Origin: Minisyncoccota bacterium
GTDB lineage: Bacteria > Patescibacteriota > Minisyncoccia > UBA6257 > 2-01-FULL-56-20
Assembly: GCA_035509435.1 (NCBI GenBank)
Contig: DATJLR010000002.1
Coordinates: 133,774 to 197,773, forward strand
Length of the DNA stretch: 64,000 nucleotides
Direction of reading: 5' to 3'
In this document: one piece after another, positions 10,771-33,213 of the stretch
Layout of the letters: each line of letters opens with the position of its first letter
Numbering within the stretch: position 1 is the first letter of the stretch
The notes under the pieces: generated by a model
The model's input: the letters and a program-made list of their open reading frames with translations, nothing else
What the model was told of the DNA's origin: nothing
Databases searched by the model: none
Position numbers and translations under genes: made by a program

Positions 10771-10794
10771 TCAAATCCAGTCCGGTGCCCCTTG

Positions 10795-10867
10795 TGGACC
10801 CGCCCGGAGTTGCGCCGGGATCTCCCGATTGTCAAAAGCGGGCGCTCTACTGTTGAGCTACGGGCCC
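10795..10867 (-). pseudogene. degenerate tRNA-like element (Ala-like acceptor G3:U70/A73; aberrant anticodon and T loops)
   Basis: 73 nt with 7-bp acceptor GGGCCCG/CGGGTCC, a D arm GCTC-AACAGTA-GAGC and a T stem CCCGG/CCGGG. The anticodon region is a 4-bp stem with an 11-nt loop and the T loop is CGCAACT instead of TTCGAAT. Confidence 0.4.
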
Positions 10868-27677: not shown

Positions 27678-27699
27678 TGCTATTATTGTACCAAATTTG

Positions 27700-27784
27700 C
27701 GGAGGGTGCAGGACTCGAACCTGCAAGTCCCTTACGGGACCCCGGTTTTCAAGACCGGTGCCTTGCCATTCGGCGCAACCCTCC
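27700..27784 (-). tRNA. tRNA-Ser (anticodon TGA)
   Basis: Acceptor GGAGGGT/ACCCTCC, anticodon loop CTTGAAA, long variable arm, T loop GTTCGAGTC; CCA not encoded. Confidence 0.85.
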
Positions 27785-27955
27785 TCTTGGATTTTATACC
27801 ATCAACTTATAATGTTTTCCAATCCAGCTCCTGGTGAGATAATGTTCTTCAGAGTGACAATTAGGACAGATCAATTCAAGATTATTCAATTCATTATTAT
27901 TTCTATTTCTGTCCTTATGGTGTACGTTCAAAATTTCACGCTTATTATAACCACA

Positions 27956-28288
27956 TCATTCGCATTTTCCACCCCGGATTTCAATCAGTCGTATTTTTAA
28001 GAGTCCAGTAGAAACGATTTTGTCTTTCAGCCTGCGCCCGGTATATTTTATACCCGCCCTATTTCTATTTGCACAACTTCTGCTGCATGTCTTTTTATTG
28101 AATCGCGCAGCGATGGGCTTTCCACGGATCGCACAGGGATGCTCTTTGAGGATAGATTTGCCGTAACAACTTGAACTGCAAAAGACATTTCCTTTATTGC
28201 CGGATATTTCTTTTGGTCTTCGATAGATCGGCCTCCGACAAATTTTGCATTCAATATTAGGGTTTCTCTTATACGCTTTCATCCACAC
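27956..28288 (-). CDS. hypothetical Cys-rich (zinc-ribbon-like) basic protein in AT-rich islet
   Basis: CKIC..x17..CSSSC plus a further C/H cluster; local GC much lower than surroundings; low confidence that it is expressed. Confidence 0.3.
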   Translation of the reverse strand: MWMKAYKRNPNIECKICRRPIYRRPKEISGNKGNVFCSSSCYGKSILKEHPCAIRGKPIAARFNKKTCSRSCANRNRAGIKYTGRRLKDKIVSTGLLKIRLIEIRGGKCE

Positions 28289-28344
28289 ACTTTACTGCCA
28301 AGCAAAATTGATTTCAAGAAAAATTTTAGAATTTTTTAATCTTG

Positions 28345-28415
28345 TGGACCCACGGGGAATCGAACCCCGACCTCCTCCATGCCATGGAGGCGTAATACCA
28401 TTTTACTATGGGCCC
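28345..28415 (-). tRNA. tRNA-Ala (anticodon GGC)
   Basis: Acceptor GGGCCCA/TGGGTCC with G3:U70, A73, anticodon loop ATGGCAT, T loop TTCGATT. Confidence 0.85.
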
Positions 28416-28502
28416 TTTATATTTGCAGATTTTCAGAACGGCCTTGCCACTCATTCTATATATATTGCGACCGATGCGTCAATCGTCTATAGTGTCTTCA
28501 AC

Positions 28503-28574
28503 GCCCTCGTAGTTCAACGGATAGAACCGACCCGTCCTAAGGGTAAGATCGAAGTTCAATTCTTCGCGAGGGCA
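28503..28574 (+). tRNA. tRNA-Arg (anticodon CCT)
   Basis: Acceptor GCCCTCG/CGAGGGC, D arm GTTC-AACGGATA-GAAC, anticodon loop GTCCTAA (27:43 mismatch), T loop TTCAATT. Confidence 0.7.
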
Positions 28575-28581
28575 CAACCAA

Positions 28582-28617
28582 AGGCGGATTTATCCACCGC
28601 CGGACTTTTCTTTTTTT
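28582..28617 (+). terminator. rho-independent terminator after tRNA-Arg
   Basis: GGCGG-ATTTATCCA-CCGCC hairpin followed by a T-rich run (CTTTTCTTTTTTT). Confidence 0.6.
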
Positions 28618-28619
28618 AT

Positions 28620-28961
28620 GGGAGTGCTATGGTAATGGGAGTTGCTTCCAAGTTTCAAACCAGGGATTTGGAGGCACATCTCAGACCCAAAAGGAAACGA
28701 TATATGCCCGTTGTCACGGTTCGCAGTGACTTGCAGCCCACAGGAGTATTTGTCCCTGGGCTGAACCCACCCAAACTAAACAGCGTATGCGTCAGCCCTG
28801 ACGTTGCCAATACGCTGGTGCCCCGCTTCATCGCTTCCCGTCGCGGAGGCCTGAAGCTTTCGAAGCCCGACTTTGCGAAACTCAAAGGCCATGCACTCGG
28901 AGAGAACGGCCAGCCCGGCTGTCTCTGCTGCCGAACGGCTCTCAATTGGGGTCTTTTCTAA
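28620..28961 (+). other. unassigned 340-bp element inside the tRNA cluster: candidate structured ncRNA or small basic ORF (28629..28961, 110 aa)
   Basis: GC-rich, several local hairpins; the ORF has a GGGAG SD at 4-nt spacing but atypical codon usage (gta, aga, agg, cga, cta). Confidence 0.25.
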
Positions 28962-29086
28962 CCCCGCTTTTCCCAGATCTGATTTTTCCCCAAGTACGCG
29001 GCGCTGCTCCTTCCCCAAGGAAGCAGCGCCTTTTTTATTTCCTGACCCTTGAAAAGGGTCCGCGTTTCTGTAACTATAGAGCGAAG

Positions 29087-29173
29087 GGAGAGGTGGCTGA
29101 GTGGTCGAAGGCGCCGCACTCGAAATGCGGTGTGCTCGAAAGGGCACCGTGGGTTCGAATCCCACCCTCTCCG
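29087..29173 (+). tRNA. tRNA-Ser (anticodon CGA)
   Basis: Acceptor GGAGAGG/CCTCTCC, anticodon stem-loop CCGCA-CTCGAAA-TGCGG, long variable arm, T loop GTTCGAATC. Confidence 0.85.
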
Positions 29174-29263
29174 CACCGGTGCGGATCACACGAATATGTT
29201 GCGCGATTGCCGTTTTTTCGCTATATTTTCTTGGAGCAGCGCGCCGCCGGCGCGCGTGACGGC

Positions 29264-29336
29264 GCCACCTTAGCTCAGTTGGTAGAGCAGTGCTTTCGTA
29301 AAGCAAAGGTCCCCGGTTCGAATCCGGGAGGTGGCT
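29264..29336 (+). tRNA. tRNA-Thr (anticodon CGT)
   Basis: Acceptor GCCACCT/AGGTGGC, discriminator U, anticodon loop TTCGTAA, T loop TTCGAAT. Confidence 0.8.
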
Positions 29337-29362
29337 CAAAAGTGATATAATAAGAACAATCT

Positions 29363-29578: not shown

Positions 29579-30641
29579 ATGGACCAGAACGAATCACTGA
29601 AGGAGCTTTCGGAGGAAGCCCGCCGGCTTGGCGGGCGGCTTTGACCTCGACGCGAAACGCAAACGGATCGCGGAACTCACGGCGGAAATGTCATCGGCGG
29701 ATTTTTGGTCTGACCGCGCGAACGCGGACGCGAAGATCCGCGAGCTCGGCGAACTGAACGACGTCGTTTCAAAGTATGAGGACATCATCGCCGGCGTCGA
29801 CGTGCTCGAAGCGGGGTTCGACGAAAATATGTTCCACGACGTCAAGCGCAAATTCCGCGATTTCGAACTGACACAGCTTTTCACCGGCCGGTACGACAAG
29901 CAGGCGGCCGTGCTCGCGATCTATCCCGGAGCGGGCGGCGACGACGCCGAGGACTGGGCGCGGATGCTTAGCGAAATGTACGAGGGCTACGCGAAGCTCC
30001 GCGGATGGAAGGTGCGCGTGGTGGACGACAATCCGCGCTCGCGCACGCTCGAAGTGAGCGGCCCCTACGCGTACGGCTATTTAAAGAACGAGCAGGGCGT
30101 GCACCGGCTTGTGCGGATATCGCCGTTCAACGCAAAACATTCGCGCGAAACATCCTTTGCGCTCGTGGAAGTGATGCCCGATCTGCCCGCGCTCGACGAA
30201 TCAAAGCTGCAGATCCCGGAGAGCGACCTCAAGTTCGAGTTTTCCCGCGCCGGCGGTCCCGGCGGACAGAACGTCAACAAGGTGGAGACGGCGGTGCGCG
30301 TGGTGCACCTGCCGACCGGCGTCGCGATCAGCTCGCGCGCCCAGCGCAGCCAGCAGCAGAACCGCGAGGCGGCGCTCAAGATCCTCAAGGCAAAACTTTT
30401 CCAGCTGATGGAGCAGGAGAAGGTGGAAGAGGTCGGCGCCCTCCGCACAAAAGTGAAGCCGGAGTGGGGGAGCCAGATCCGTTCGTACGTGCTGAACCCG
30501 TATCAGATGGTGAAAGACCACCGCACCGACGCCGAAACGGCGCGTGTGGATGAAGCATTGGCGGGAAACATTGATATGTTTATAGAGGCGATGCTGGAGC
30601 GGAAGGCGAATGACGACTCGGTGCCGAAACTTGACAAATAG
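29579..30641 (+). CDS. prfB: peptide chain release factor 2 with programmed +1 ribosomal frameshift
   Basis: Frame 0 ATG 29579 ([21 protein letters not shown]) ends at in-frame TGA 29642-29644 within CTT TGA C; the +1 frame continues ([12 protein letters not shown]...) to 30641 with SPF and GGQ motifs. Confidence 0.9.
29630..29648 (+). promoter_or_regulatory. RF2 autoregulatory frameshift site (internal SD-like GGCGGG, CTT TGA C)
   Basis: GGCGGGCGG CTT TGA CCT; canonical slippery CUU plus UGA with a C in the +1 context. Confidence 0.85.
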
Positions 30642-30696
30642 GCAATTATATTGTTATAATACCACTGCACCTTCAAAACCAGTGAAATTACTTGGT

Positions 30697-30749
30697 AGTT
30701 ACAGCCTTTAGCGCATATCCGATTGATATTCGTTAAAAGCTGTAACTAC
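30697..30749 (+). promoter_or_regulatory. 11-bp inverted repeat (GTAGTTACAGC / GCTGTAACTAC) in the 5' leader of the DGR target gene
   Basis: Perfect arms at 30697-30707 and 30739-30749 with a 31-nt spacer, 20 bp upstream of the SD and ATG at 30769; TATAAT at about 30653. Confidence 0.5.
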
Positions 30750-30768
30750 ATTTCAAGGGAGAATCGTC

Positions 30769-31359
30769 ATGGCACAGCGTGTCGCAGGCGAAATCTACGA
30801 ATCAGTGACCGGTCAGCTTTTTGAGATCGGCCGTCAGCTTCGGCAACCGAACGGATATCCGTTCGATGCACAGAAGCTCCAACGCGCACTTCAAAACGCC
30901 ATCGAGGGAAAGTTTGATGTCACGTCGGTGGTCCAGCAGTATCTCGTCACCGTGAACTACGACCTTTCGGTTAAGGACGCGATCGCGGCGGGACGCTACG
31001 ACTGGAAGAACGATGACATCACCGCCAAGAACTTCCCGTCGAAGCGTAAGGGAACCGCCGATCTGGAAATCATCCTCGTCAAATTTGACGATGCGATGAG
31101 TTCCGAGGGTATCCTCCGCGAGCTCGACAAGCAGGGACTGCGCGCGGCCGAGTTGCCGGAACTGCTTGCCTTCGGGGAGAAATACCCCGATGTGCAGCGC
31201 GAGTTCCCGGTGGTCGCACTTGGTTCCGTGTGGCGGGGCTCGGTCGGCAACCGTGGCGTGCCGTACCTCCGCGGGTACGCTGGCAAGCGCTACCTGCTCC
31301 TGGACTGGTTCGGCCTCGGGTGGGGCTCGCTCTGCCGGTTCGCCGCAGTCCGCAAGTAA
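30769..31359 (+). CDS. DGR target (variable) protein with C-terminal VR, C-type-lectin-like fold expected
   Basis: 196 aa; the last 45 codons are the VR and end in the invariant CRFAAVRK; AGGGAGAA SD. Confidence 0.8.
   Translation: MAQRVAGEIYESVTGQLFEIGRQLRQPNGYPFDAQKLQRALQNAIEGKFDVTSVVQQYLVTVNYDLSVKDAIAAGRYDWKNDDITAKNFPSKRKGTADLEIILVKFDDAMSSEGILRELDKQGLRAAELPELLAFGEKYPDVQREFPVVALGSVWRGSVGNRGVPYLRGYAGKRYLLLDWFGLGWGSLCRFAAVRK
31221..31355 (+). repeat. DGR variable repeat (VR)
   Basis: 135 bp; 112/135 identical to the TR, and all 23 mismatches lie at TR adenines; 3' 34 bp identical and GC-rich (IMH-like). Confidence 0.85.
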
Positions 31360-31404
31360 TTTTATACCTTAGGCACTGGGTCACTCATTTTTTCTGATCC
31401 TTTG

Positions 31405-31436
31405 TCCCTTCGGCCCCTGCACGAGATTTGGATCTT
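31405..31436 (+). other. GC-rich hairpin downstream of VR (CCCCTGCA..16 nt..TGCAGGGG)
   Basis: 8-bp stem 46 bp after the target stop codon; candidate terminator and/or DGR homing-associated structure. Confidence 0.5.
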
Positions 31437-31709
31437 TTGCAGGGGCTTTCCATTTTCAGCCGGTATGATATTTTGAATTTGGATAGTAGGCTCAAAACAA
31501 GTTGCAGGCTACGGTTCGCAACGGCCGAATTCCGGGATGACTGAATGGAGAATGGTTGCGGGTACGCTTTCGGCCAGAGTTGTTCTCTCATCCCCCAAAA
31601 ATAAAGATACTTGGTGCAAGATATTAGAGGATTAGAATTCCGAGATCCCGAATACGATTCAGTCCCGAGAGTATTCAAGGGGCAGTGGCGCAGGCGATAT
31701 CTTGTACGC

Positions 31710-31844
31710 TGGTTCCGTGTGGCAGAACTCGGACGGCAACCGTAACGTGCCGTACCTCAACAGGAACGCTGACAAGCGCAACCTGAACCTGAACTGGTTC
31801 GACAACAGGTGGAACTCGAACTGCCGGTTCGCCGCAGTCCGCAA
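31710..31844 (+). repeat. DGR template repeat (TR)
   Basis: Direct repeat of the VR; in the VR reading frame it carries 13 AAC codons plus GAC/AGG/CAG codons at every variable position. Confidence 0.85.
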
Positions 31845-31866
31845 CTCTCTTTGTTTTCACGCCGCC

Positions 31867-32193
31867 CTATGCGGCGTTTTCTTTCATCAATTGCCTGTTC
31901 CAGCCGCCGAGCATTTTGCCGATCTCGTTCAACTTTTCCGAGAGATAAATGTATTTCTTCTCGTCCAACCCCTTGATCTCCCAGAGTATTTGTAAAAAGA
32001 ATTTTGCGAGATCGAGCTTGGCTGTTGCTTGTTGGATGTAGGGGAGCTTTTGGTGTTTCCCTAAATAGCTTGCTATGAAAATAAGCTCGGCGGTATCTAC
32101 AAATGCGGTATCGATTTTTGTCCCTAATGTATAGCGCGCGTCTTTCGGTACGTGCGTCAGGAACTCATGCCAGGTTTTGTATGCCGCCACCAA
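31867..32193 (-). CDS. avd: Avd-like accessory variability determinant (four-helix-bundle protein)
   Basis: 108 aa; VPKDARYTLG ... LSEKLNEIGKMLGGW matches the bAvd/four-helix-bundle family pattern (IP.KHG ... EVGRILGSW); encoded on the strand opposite to TR and RT. Confidence 0.65.
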   Translation of the reverse strand: MVAAYKTWHEFLTHVPKDARYTLGTKIDTAFVDTAELIFIASYLGKHQKLPYIQQATAKLDLAKFFLQILWEIKGLDEKKYIYLSEKLNEIGKMLGGWNRQLMKENAA

Positions 32194-32222
32194 GTGTTGG
32201 ATAATGGGAAGTGTAAGGTGTC

Positions 32223-32232
32223 GGGGGGGGGG
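32223..32232. repeat. G10 homopolymer in the avd-RT divergent intergenic region
   Basis: gtcGGGGGGGGGGtta, 25 bp upstream of the RT ATG. Confidence 0.8.
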
Positions 32233-32256
32233 TTAAAGGTGAATTCATAATATAGT

Positions 32257-33213
32257 ATGTTTGAAGAAATTATCAGTGCTGAAAATTTGTTGGCCGCGTG
32301 GGAGGAATTTATTACGGGCAAACGCGCAAAGCGCGATGTGCAGGAATTCCAGCTGCACCTTATGGATAACATTCTAGCGCTTCGCGACGATTTGCGGAAT
32401 GGCGCCTATCGCCACGGCGAATATCAGGCATTCAACATCTCCGACCCCAAACCGCGGAATATCCATAAAGCGACCGTGCGCGACCGCCTGCTCCATCATG
32501 CGATCTACCGCGTGCTCTATCCGTTCTTTGACCGCACGTTCATCGCGGATTCGTTCTCGTGCCGCGTCGGGAAGGGAACCCATGCGGCGATGGACCGGTT
32601 CCGGGCGTTCGGTTATGTCGCAAGCAGGAACAACACGCGCACGTGTTGGGCGCTCAAATGCGACATCAGGAAATTTTTCGCGAATATTGATCATGAAGTA
32701 TTGCTGAAAATCTTCGCGCGGCGGATCGGCGATGAACAACTGCTTTCGTTGTTGCGCGAGATCGTCGAGAGCTTTTCCTCTGTGCGCCCTGGCGTCGGCT
32801 TGCCGCTTGGCAATCTTACTTCACAGTTATTCGTGAACGTCTATATGAACGAGTTTGACCAATTTGCCAAACACGCGCTTCGTGTAAAATATTACATTCG
32901 TTATGCCGATGATTTTGTCATTTTATCTTCCAACCGTGATTGGCTTGGGATCATTTTGCCGGAAATAGATTATTTTTTGCAGGATCGGCTGAAATTGCAG
33001 CTCCATCCCGACAAGGTCTTCATCAAGACGCTTGCCTCCGGCATTGACTTCCTGGGGTGGGTGCATTTTCCTGATCATCGCGTTCTGCGCACCGCCACAA
33101 AGCGCCGAATGTCCAGGCGCGTGAGCAAAGATCCTTCTCTGCCGGTCGTCAATGCTTACAAAGGGATGCTGTCACACGGGAATGCCCATAAGCAAACATT
33201 AAAACTTCCTTAA
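32257..33213 (+). CDS. DGR reverse transcriptase
   Basis: RT motifs: SFSCRVGKGTHAA, ALKCDIRKFFANIDH, LPLGNLTSQLFVNVYMNEFD, IRYADDFVI (YxDD); 318 aa, typical DGR RT size. Confidence 0.9.
   Translation: MFEEIISAENLLAAWEEFITGKRAKRDVQEFQLHLMDNILALRDDLRNGAYRHGEYQAFNISDPKPRNIHKATVRDRLLHHAIYRVLYPFFDRTFIADSFSCRVGKGTHAAMDRFRAFGYVASRNNTRTCWALKCDIRKFFANIDHEVLLKIFARRIGDEQLLSLLREIVESFSSVRPGVGLPLGNLTSQLFVNVYMNEFDQFAKHALRVKYYIRYADDFVILSSNRDWLGIILPEIDYFLQDRLKLQLHPDKVFIKTLASGIDFLGWVHFPDHRVLRTATKRRMSRRVSKDPSLPVVNAYKGMLSHGNAHKQTLKLP

Follow-up and report, generated by a model that had tools for sequence, protein, structure and literature searches.

Comparative evidence for a permuted template RNA scaffold and for an avd contingency tract that probably gates mutagenesis in Patescibacteria diversity-generating retroelements

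A cell that carries a diversity-generating retroelement (DGR) faces a problem of control: a useful variant, once it has arisen, must not be overwritten. How such control could be exerted is the question raised by the locus described here. It lies in a stretch of 64,000 nucleotides, called the window below (contig DATJLR010000002.1, positions 133,774 to 197,773, forward strand), of the Minisyncoccota assembly GCA_035509435.1, and comprises a target gene ending in a variable repeat (VR), a template repeat (TR), the gene for the accessory protein Avd and the gene for a reverse transcriptase (RT). The element is a complete chromosomal DGR in a Candidatus Paceibacterota genome, of a class that is specific to Patescibacteria and has the order target-TR-(avd)-RT. 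Comparison of related loci points to two clade-wide features, namely an RNA scaffold that is permuted and a contingency tract within avd that probably gates mutagenesis. Taken as a whole, the locus is likely to be best explained as a DGR of the Patescibacteria class that employs the RNA clamp mechanism inferred below and an avd slippage switch, with the window copy in its OFF phase.

The coordinates at which an earlier reading, made from the letters alone (the sequence-only reading), had placed a 135-nt direct repeat proved exact on recheck (Table 1); VR and TR are spaced 489 nt apart. Mismatches number 23, each with an adenine in TR, just as that reading had it, and 0 of the 101 non-adenine positions differ. 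Given 34 adenines in TR, the hypergeometric probability that every mismatch falls on an adenine is 5.4e-18. The identity of all 101 non-adenine positions suggests that the last homing event in the window copy was recent. No further VR-like copy was found in the 64-kb window. The mismatches affect 16 codons. When TR is read in the target frame it contains 12 AAC codons, one fewer than the 13 previously counted, and GAC, AGG and CAG are indeed among the varied codons; 11 AAC codons lie wholly within the TR repeat, 10 of which are varied in VR. The TR adenines stand at codon positions 1 and 2 (AAC), and stop codons are nearly excluded, one AAG being the exception. The theoretical diversity, computed from the per-codon table, is about 1.3e15 over the 16 varied codons and 1.5e19 protein sequences over all 21 adenine-bearing codons, in agreement with the earlier estimate of at least 10^13. 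A correction is needed for the identical 3' stretch of the repeats, which resembles an initiation of mutagenic homing (IMH) element: it was thought to be 34 bp long and measures 24 nt (31332-31355; 71% G+C), after which the copies part directly (VR ...CGCAAGT, TR ...CGCAACT). Related loci with different target families have the same two ends, GCAAGT for VR and GCAACTC for TR. A GC-rich inverted repeat directly 3' of the IMH is present in 34% of DGRs and is not obligatory (Wu et al. 2018, PMC5758913); no GC hairpin was found within a few nucleotides of the VR end, the first strong hairpin being a terminator-like one that starts at 31412, 56 nt downstream.

The RT open reading frame (ORF) of 318 aa with its IRYADDF motif was confirmed at 32257, and its proposed membership of the DGR clade is borne out by profile and structure-library scores and by motifs. 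The protein matches Pfam RVT_1 and falls in a phage RT family of PHROG (372 bits); no fewer than 7,956 proteins are related to it at E<=1e-60. DGR RTs carry the signature [I/V/L]GxxxSQ, whereas group II and retroviral RTs have QGxxxSP (PMC7826257); the window RT has the DGR form LGNLTSQ, of which G185, N186, S189 and Q190 are invariant among 16 relatives. Its best solved relative is chain 8ub7_A (E=8.5e-45, 156.6 bits), to which it is homologous over the full length, and the next-best solved RTs (group II intron and 'retron-type') reach at most 84 bits (about 1e-22). Chain 8ub7 was identified as the RT of the Bordetella phage (bRT) because its K29, D215 and D216 fit the residue numbers given by Handa et al. 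(bioRxiv 10.1101/2023.10.23.563531). The arginine equivalent to bRT R74, which promotes adenine mutagenesis, is conserved in the window RT, as are the equivalents of K29, F66, I76, [I/L]GxxxSQ and YxDD.

The target is predicted to be a small, cytoplasmic-looking protein with a C-type-lectin-like fold, in which the VR forms the last 45 codons. In the structural model, which is a confident one (pLDDT 89), the VR is located on the C-terminal strands, which agrees with the C-type lectin (CLec) fold that had been suggested for the C-terminus, and the best structural neighbours are compact C-type-lectin-like and Link-like domains. The earlier remark that the protein lacks a signal peptide is upheld by hydropathy analysis, in which no hydrophobic segment was found (maximum 15-aa Kyte-Doolittle value 1.05; first 40 residues 0.27). 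Searches of Pfam and NCBIfam gave no match for the target, and a sequence search of the PDB gave nothing meaningful. The protein is 100% identical to one from a Candidatus Paceibacterota metagenome-assembled genome. In comparison with TvpA of Treponema denticola (2y3c) and other solved variable proteins of the CLec/FGE (formylglycine-generating enzyme) type, the target is much smaller (196 aa), has no Pfam- or PDB-detectable similarity, and lacks a secretion or lipoprotein signal.

As a DGR, the window element is an ordinary member of a catalogued class. The order TR-(avd)-RT is the B3 architecture, which accounts for 90% of the DGRs of the candidate phyla radiation (Wu et al. 2018, PMC5758913), and Patescibacteria DGRs form clade 2, the targets of which lack transmembrane (TM) segments or recognisable domains and the activity of which is lower than average (Roux et al. 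2021, PMC8144416). The element shares with this class its Patescibacteria host, the order target-TR-(avd)-RT in which only avd is inverted, an AAC-rich TR, a small target devoid of TM segments, signal peptide and recognised domains, and a chromosomal position among housekeeping genes.

Indirect evidence that the family is active, drawn from sequence comparison, is strong. The comparison set comprised about 180 related loci, in which VR/TR pairs were located by an adenine-tolerant diagonal search. Gene order and orientation are the same in 17 related genome loci, where almost all VR/TR mismatches are at TR adenines; the distance from VR end to TR start is 247-411 nt, that from TR end to avd stop mostly 13-40 nt, and that between avd and RT 61-160 nt (boundaries from tblastn). 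In the closest target homologues the VR differs from that of the window at 62-68% of the TR-adenine sites and at 11-17% of the other sites, the latter being the level at which the rest of the gene has diverged (15%). Across the family (21 or 103 members) entropy amounts to 2.7-3.0 bits at codons with TR adenines, against 0.7-0.9 bits at other VR codons. A case in point is a sister lineage that has an RT of 84% identity and likewise lies between prfB and ftsEX. Over 6,157 nt, two of its contigs, obtained from different samples, are distinguished solely by the length of the avd tract and by seven substitutions in the VR, six of which fall on adenines of a TR that is the same in both.

The first clade-wide feature concerns the template RNA. 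When TR flanks were aligned across loci, about 230 nt directly 5' of TR turned out to be conserved, and an nhmmer profile of this 5' domain recovers 80 loci, in each of which the domain shares the strand of RT and keeps a constant distance to it; no Rfam family matches it. To assess covariation, 44 full-length RNAs were aligned with MAFFT and the alignment was left unfitted; from it RNAalifold predicts 46 pairs, 41 of them with compensatory changes. With a long-range helix added by hand, the resulting 56 pairs are paired in 93.3% of cases as compared to 71.9% in column shuffles and 42-52% with slid partners, and the number of compensatory (double-change) cells is 600, against 177 in shuffled and 106-134 in slid controls; none of 500 shuffles reached the observed values. 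Because G-U pairs are frequent, the structure can be placed on the TR-sense strand. Its most informative part is a continuous strand that would clamp both flanks of TR: the 5' half (AAAATAAAGATACTTG, 31598-31613) pairs with the TR 3' end and the 14-nt linker that follows it, and the 3' half (GTGCAAGATATT) forms the 12-bp helix P3 with 31696-31707, ending 2 nt before TR. For the 26 pairs of these clamp helices the paired fraction is 91.6%, versus 78.9% in shuffles and 37-59% with slid partners, with 165 double-change cells versus 44. In an unbiased scan the clamp strand came out as the best partner of the linker, and for the TR 3' end no covarying partner was found besides this A-rich strand. 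The G at 31841, just 5' of the linker duplex, is an invariant column in the 44 sequences.

The TR RNA appears to be a transcription unit of its own, with a putative promoter and a terminator. A TGATAAAAT-like element is conserved 8-12 nt 5' of a conserved GGATAGTAG in related loci, and a hairpin followed by a T-run occurs 3' of TR in 46 of 49 related loci as compared to 24 of 146 control segments. The stem-loop that ends the RNA may also correspond to the one to which Avd binds in BPP-1. In four loci (L034, L040, L041 and L064) the 5' domain is matched in part 3' of target homologues that have no intact RT or avd nearby; these look like remnants of lost DGR cores.

The phage system BPP-1 (mtd-avd-TR-brt), the mechanistic prototype with cryo-EM structures of bRT-Avd-RNA (8ub7 and related entries), provides the obvious reference. 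It has in common with the window element an Avd accessory protein, adenine-specific transfer from TR to VR, and a CLec target with a C-terminal VR. In BPP-1, the primer duplex consists of spacer (Sp) positions 47-56 and TR 118-129, and a second duplex, called 'cPRT Stop', consists of Sp 59-70 and a segment 5' of TR (bioRxiv 10.1101/2023.10.23.563531). The clamp described here is alike in that the 5' half of one RNA strand lies on the TR 3' region and its 3' half just 5' of TR, with TR looped out, and it has the polarity of Sp 47-70. It differs in that the clamp strand and nearly all of the structured RNA are 5' of TR, whereas the approximately 140-nt Sp of BPP-1 is 3'; a BPP-1-like structured spacer is not found 3' of the window TR, where only the 14-nt linker, a stem-loop, a U-tract and then antisense avd are present. 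The covariation is consistent with a scaffold that is a circular permutation of the BPP-1 topology. The survey of other DGRs by Handa et al. covered 40 nt 5' and 100 nt 3' of TRs (bioRxiv 10.1101/2023.10.23.563531), and would miss the 5' domain. Further differences are that avd is inverted, 3' of TR and provided with a frameshift-prone tract, that the element is chromosomal instead of phage-borne, and that an array of CTTGG-like repeats takes the place of the GC-rich cruciform after the IMH.

With these elements a mutagenic cycle can be envisaged. A separate RNA of about 400 nt would be transcribed from around 31482 to the terminator at 31859-31885, and helices P1, P2, P4 and P5 of its 5' domain would serve as a protein-binding scaffold. 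By pairing with the linker and the end of TR, the 5' half of the clamp would cause complementary DNA (cDNA) synthesis to begin near the invariant G31841, and P3, which abuts the TR 5' end, would stop synthesis there. In between, the RT-Avd complex would copy TR with misincorporation opposite adenines, after which the cDNA would replace the VR between the IMH-like end (...CGCAAGT) and upstream homology.

The second feature is found in avd, a gene that most but not all DGRs possess. A 108-aa Avd-like ORF between TR and RT had been noticed before; it is present and Avd models match it, and it is located on the minus strand, which had been left unstated, so that the gene converges on TR and diverges from RT. 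The score with Pfam bAvd is 46.2 bits (cutoff 40), irrespective of the presence of an N-terminal extension, and PHROG returns 'Avd protein of DGR' (E=4e-16); a sequence search against solved structures gave nothing meaningful. The form that starts internally reaches 74.3 bits with the NCBIfam model (cutoff 80) and covers profile positions 12-103 only. Upstream of it, a leader ORF with its own ATG runs into a tract of ten G residues (G10). With this tract length the leader yields the out-of-frame product MNSPLTPPPTPYTSHYPTLGGGIQNLA followed by a stop, whereas with G9 or G12 it is fused to avd (MNSPLTPP(P)RHLTLPIIQHL...). When the frame is restored as G9, the NCBIfam match extends over positions 1-103 with 79.8 bits, the restored residues filling positions 1-11.

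That the leader is part of the gene is suggested by its relatives. Across 80 loci with both gene starts, the tract is G7-G14 in 61 and (GA)n or (GT)n in 7, and 61 of the 85 runs of at least seven G or C residues in 976 kb lie in avd-RT spacers. In 66/66 tract-bearing sequences there is one tract phase by which the upstream ATG, usually some 20 nt within the RT gene on the other strand, is put in frame with avd, and the leader is conserved (M-x-Q-L-N-F-H...PPP...LPIIQK). Only 9 of these 66 sequences are in frame, 30 needing +1 and 27 needing -1. The tract-less loci can be regarded as controls: 12 of 13 are continuously in frame from the upstream ATG, where chance would give about 1/3, and L013 keeps four prolines with an interrupted run. 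Tract length is variable in nature. In a set of sequences with identical RT (P0124) the tract is 10, 10, 10, 11, 11 and 12 nt long with identical flanks, and in the G12 allele avd reads through the tract to an ATG that is back-to-back with the RT ATG, giving 128 aa. L105 has G10 where L108 has G8. The closest relative of the window RT carries G9 and an intact avd of 127 aa, a further relative with G10 would yield the 27-aa out-of-frame product that is also encoded in the window, and four other RT sets are monomorphic (G8, G9, G9 and G10).

As judged from these comparisons, the tract lies inside avd and the window copy is out of frame for full-length Avd. Translation of the full-length protein would begin at the minus-strand ATG, which adjoins or overlaps the beginning of RT, and the tract would be read as prolines. 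Slippage in the tract would shift Avd into or out of frame and would thereby turn mutagenesis on or off. Because G10 is out of frame, mutagenesis by the window element is probably switched off. We also considered that the tract is located in a divergent promoter or 5'-untranslated region (UTR) instead of acting as a switch within an ORF, since only 25% of the loci are in frame; the length polymorphism, the upstream ATG and the tract-less controls overturned this idea.

The starts of avd and RT are arranged head to head (32246-32259). Their ATG codons are 8 nt apart in the window and back-to-back (CATATG) in L161, L162 and L182. In most relatives (L002, L031, L103, L124 and others) the avd ATG lies opposite a conserved CAT, codon 7 or 8 of RT, and some 21-24 nt are coding on both strands (RT MKIQLxH versus Avd MxQLNFH).

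Several points weigh against the proposed switch and clamp. Most related loci that are out of frame keep intact VR/TR pairs with adenine-only differences, for which reason the short, internally started Avd could work, and if G10 means OFF, the flawless VR/TR pair of the window can be understood only if the element was ON not long ago or if the 107-108-aa Avd has some activity. The frame-restored Avd still scores just below the NCBIfam cutoff (79.8 against 80). Homopolymer lengths can be wrong in assemblies, yet they are reproducible over 10, 4, 3 and 3 independent contigs in the four RT sets. The only other assembly of the locus, one Logan contig, is identical, including VR and G10. Regarding the RNA, 10 of 44 sequences lack a G:C pair at alignment columns 244/574, beside the putative cDNA start, and it is by analogy only that a priming site is proposed, that P3 is taken to stop synthesis and that P1, P2, P4 and P5 are taken to be a scaffold. 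The statement in the sequence-only reading that the system is functional-looking also needs qualification: all components it named are present and pass independent tests, but the full-length avd frame is broken by G10.

An alternative explanation for the tract is that it acts at the RNA level, by transcriptional slippage or ribosomal frameshifting, which would give a small but constant amount of full-length Avd and mutagenesis that is low but always on. Long homopolymers and CCC-C proline codons are slippage sites, and the dominance of out-of-frame sequences (57/66), split evenly between +1 (30) and -1 (27), would be in line with such a process. The absence of a preferred direction, however, argues against a programmed frameshift, the DNA itself is polymorphic in length between identical flanks (10/11/12 nt in one population, 10 versus 8 in another), and the dinucleotide repeats at the tract site fit DNA slippage better. 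We consider this explanation rather unlikely, with the remark that a DNA switch and slippage at the RNA level are not mutually exclusive.

It is also conceivable that the tract is no switch at all. Avd would then be made from an internal start (TTG 32193 or GTG 32190) as a protein of 107-108 aa, the DGR would be constitutively competent, and the upstream ATG-ORF would be incidental or a regulatory leader. Gene callers do give avd lengths of 107-109 aa in out-of-frame loci, the bAvd score does not depend on the extension, the 57 out-of-frame sequences among the 66 with a tract reside in cassettes with intact adenine-specific VR/TR pairs, and in several loci a TTG at the 'LPIIQ' position is preceded by an AGGA-like ribosome-binding site (RBS) just past the tract. 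Against this account stand the 12 of 13 tract-less loci that are in frame from the conserved upstream ATG, the fit of the extension to Avd profile positions 1-11 (74.3 to 79.8 bits), the 127-128 aa given by in-frame alleles, and the presence of a simple-sequence repeat at this site even as (GA)n or (GT)n. An internal start as the whole explanation, with or without a role for the leader, is unlikely.

Decay of the cassette to an immobile DGR remnant would account for the interrupted full-length avd frame, and decayed relatives do exist (L158; L154-L156). It is nevertheless highly improbable for the window copy, in view of the absence of non-adenine TR/VR differences (0/101) where relatives diverge by about 15%, an RT ORF with intact catalytic and signature residues, an avd that is restored by one 1-nt slip, and sister lineages with the same 318-aa RT that are demonstrably active. 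In L158 (3001-5500) the cassette is 77% identical at the nucleotide level, has stops in avd and RT, and carries a TR of another VR class than that of the adjacent target. L154-L156 consist of a target with promoter, hairpin, post-VR array and terminator, without TR, avd or RT, and are followed by parA/parB.

Finally, the notion that the RT is part of a different kind of element (a group II intron, retron or defence RT) and that the repeat is an ordinary duplication has a negligible probability and is already refuted by the adenine-only mismatches (P=5e-18), by LGxxxSQ in place of QGxxxSP and by the lead of bRT among solved matches, even though the best NCBIfam family match is the group II RT/maturase model TIGR04416 and database relatives are named 'retron-type' or 'maturase'. 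The TIGR04416 score is 137.7 bits against a cutoff of 300, the retron RT score is 45.9 against 235, Drt models are far below cutoff, and the best named defence-RT model of PADLOC gives 106 bits. Group II intron RTs are the closest non-DGR relatives (83-84 bits to solved group II RTs), but the window RT, at 318 aa, lacks a maturase/endonuclease extension, and in the window DNA searched neither group II intron domains nor retron RNA gave an Rfam match.

The proposed avd switch has its closest parallel in the contingency loci of Neisseria, Campylobacter and Bordetella with poly-G/C tracts (PMC1891110, PMC8355987). As in these, a G/C homopolymer is located in the 5' coding region, its length is polymorphic in otherwise identical sequences, and in-frame and out-of-frame alleles coexist in nature. 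The differences are that the gated gene would encode a cofactor of targeted hypermutation, not a surface antigen, that the hosts are uncultivated Patescibacteria, and that switching is here inferred from sequence. No paper linking a DGR with homopolymers or phase variation was found, and neither were the 5' RNA domain, the avd homopolymer, the head-to-head arrangement of avd and RT or the post-VR array found in the literature on B3/clade 2 DGRs, in a search that did not cover Paul et al. 2017.

Table 1 Features of the DGR locus (positions in the window; all RNA elements given on the strand of TR)
Feature	Position	Strand	Remarks
Target promoter, TTGACA-18 nt-TATAAT, TG upstream	30631-30660	+	12/12 consensus match
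5'-UTR hairpin, 25-nt arms	30695-30749	+	Just 5' of target RBS and ATG
Target gene, 196 aa	30769-31359	+	N-terminal two-helix module (~residues 1-50) and predicted C-type-lectin-like domain
VR	31221-31355	+	Last 45 codons of target
IMH-like VR 3' end	31332-31357	+	24 nt identical to TR, then GT
Post-VR array of degenerate CTTGG/CTTAG/CTTTG repeats	31366-31411	+	Window copy weak
Target mRNA terminator	31412-31458	+	GC-rich hairpin 31412-31447 and T-rich tail; dG -24.8 kcal/mol, z=-4.5
Putative extended -10 of TR RNA (TGATATTTT)	31467-31475	+	TGnTAnAAT in relatives; transcription start predicted at ~31482
Structured 5' domain of TR RNA	31482-31709	+	nhmmer profile, 80 loci
RNA helix P1	31501-31522
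RNA helix P2	31542-31586
Continuous clamp strand	31598-31625	+	Pairs with both TR flanks
RNA helix P4	31629-31648
RNA helix P5	31662-31683
RNA helix P3, 3' strand	31696-31707
TR	31710-31844	+	34 adenines, 12 in-frame AAC codons
TR 3' end and linker (CAACTCTCTTTGTTTT)	31842-31857	+	Pairs with 31598-31613
Stem-loop and U-tract ending TR RNA	31859-31885	+	dG -12.3 kcal/mol, z=-4.8; avd stop codon in loop
avd domain frame, 108-aa ORF from internal TTG	31867-32193	-	Pfam bAvd 46.2 bits
avd 5' leader ORF	32165-32248	-	ATG 32248-32246
G10 tract (C10 on avd strand)	32223-32232		avd 5' coding region; proline run when in frame
DGR RT, 318 aa	32257-33213	+	R67; LGNLTSQ 184-190; YADD 216-219; IRYADDF motif

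The flanks of the target gene have some features of their own. Its promoter, a perfect sigma-70 consensus, overlaps the prfB stop codon, and homology to related cassettes begins at about 30667, just 3' of it. The 5'-UTR folds stably (30690-30755; dG -28.4 kcal/mol, z=-7.7), and many related loci have stable hairpins of unrelated sequence at this position, followed by a conserved GGAGAATCGTCATG start region. Similarly, a hairpin of variable sequence followed by a T-run recurs at the terminator position in related loci. Between the target stop codon and the terminator lies the post-VR array, which in relatives is found some 50-140 nt 5' of the RNA domain. Its 5-mers are 10-14x enriched in related loci (2.9 per 105 nt versus 0.3-0.5 in controls), with a spacing peak at 7-8 nt. 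A role of this sequence as a BPP-1-like hairpin or cruciform was considered and rejected, as the inclusion of more loci revealed direct CTTGG-like repeats with a spacing of 7-8 nt and no covarying stem. The invariant ACUUGG of the TR RNA junction has the same sense as the post-VR repeats and is complementary to the VR end CAAGT, to which a meaning can be attached by speculation only.

Targets appear to be modular, since their N-terminal module and C-terminal domain are shared separately. The N-terminal two-helix module of about 50 aa (QLFEIGRQLRQPNGYPFD; 30769-30918) shows 67-83% identity to targets with a different C-terminal variable domain (L056, L058, L059, L061, L063 and L066-L070), and many other target homologues match residues 58-196 only. 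Several relatives have two or three target paralogues in tandem (L016, L021, L027, L032, L035 and L045). In L021 one DGR seems to serve several targets, because two paralogues match the single TR with adenine-specific mismatches. At the prfB...ftsE/ftsX site itself, L161-L167 and L182-L184 have an RT that is 84-86% identical, with another target of 227 aa and another TR class. It seems that the target and TR module is exchangeable while the avd/RT core stays.

The surroundings are those of a chromosome. In prfB (release factor 2) the site of programmed +1 frameshifting is the canonical CTT TGA C (29580-29640), where a short frame-0 ORF leads into the ORF in the +1 frame, which implies that UGA is a stop codon in the source organism. 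Five tRNA genes (Ser-TGA, Ala-GGC, Arg-CCT, Ser-CGA and Thr-CGT) are located at 27699-29337, about 1.4-3 kb 5' of the DGR, and a second tRNA-Ser(TGA) is found at 10794-10867. An ORF of 129 aa 3' of RT has no homologue in L001-L153 and is probably a host gene, not an accessory one, because it recurs only in the same chromosomal context. The DGR core (31482-33213) is poorer in G+C than its surroundings, with fractions of 0.46 for avd, 0.49 for the 5' RNA domain and 0.51 for RT, where prfB has 0.61 and the whole window 0.57; the value of 0.71 for VR is due to the replacement of its adenines.

What this may mean for the Patescibacteria can be stated in two parts. The covarying domain of about 230 nt is a candidate new RNA family, and the permuted scaffold amounts to a natural experiment, according to which clamping of both TR flanks by one strand would be essential and the position of the scaffold interchangeable; it may be useful for the engineering of compact DGRs in directed evolution. 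That throughout the clade, in addition to a permuted 5' RNA scaffold, a contingency tract in avd gates hypermutation, with most cells being DGR-silent and rare slippage switching the system on, is a tentative proposal, to which we give slightly less than an even chance. If it is true, the avd tract would explain the lower apparent activity of the Patescibacteria clade in population surveys (PMC8144416), and it would be a simple, heritable and reversible ON/OFF control of mutagenesis.

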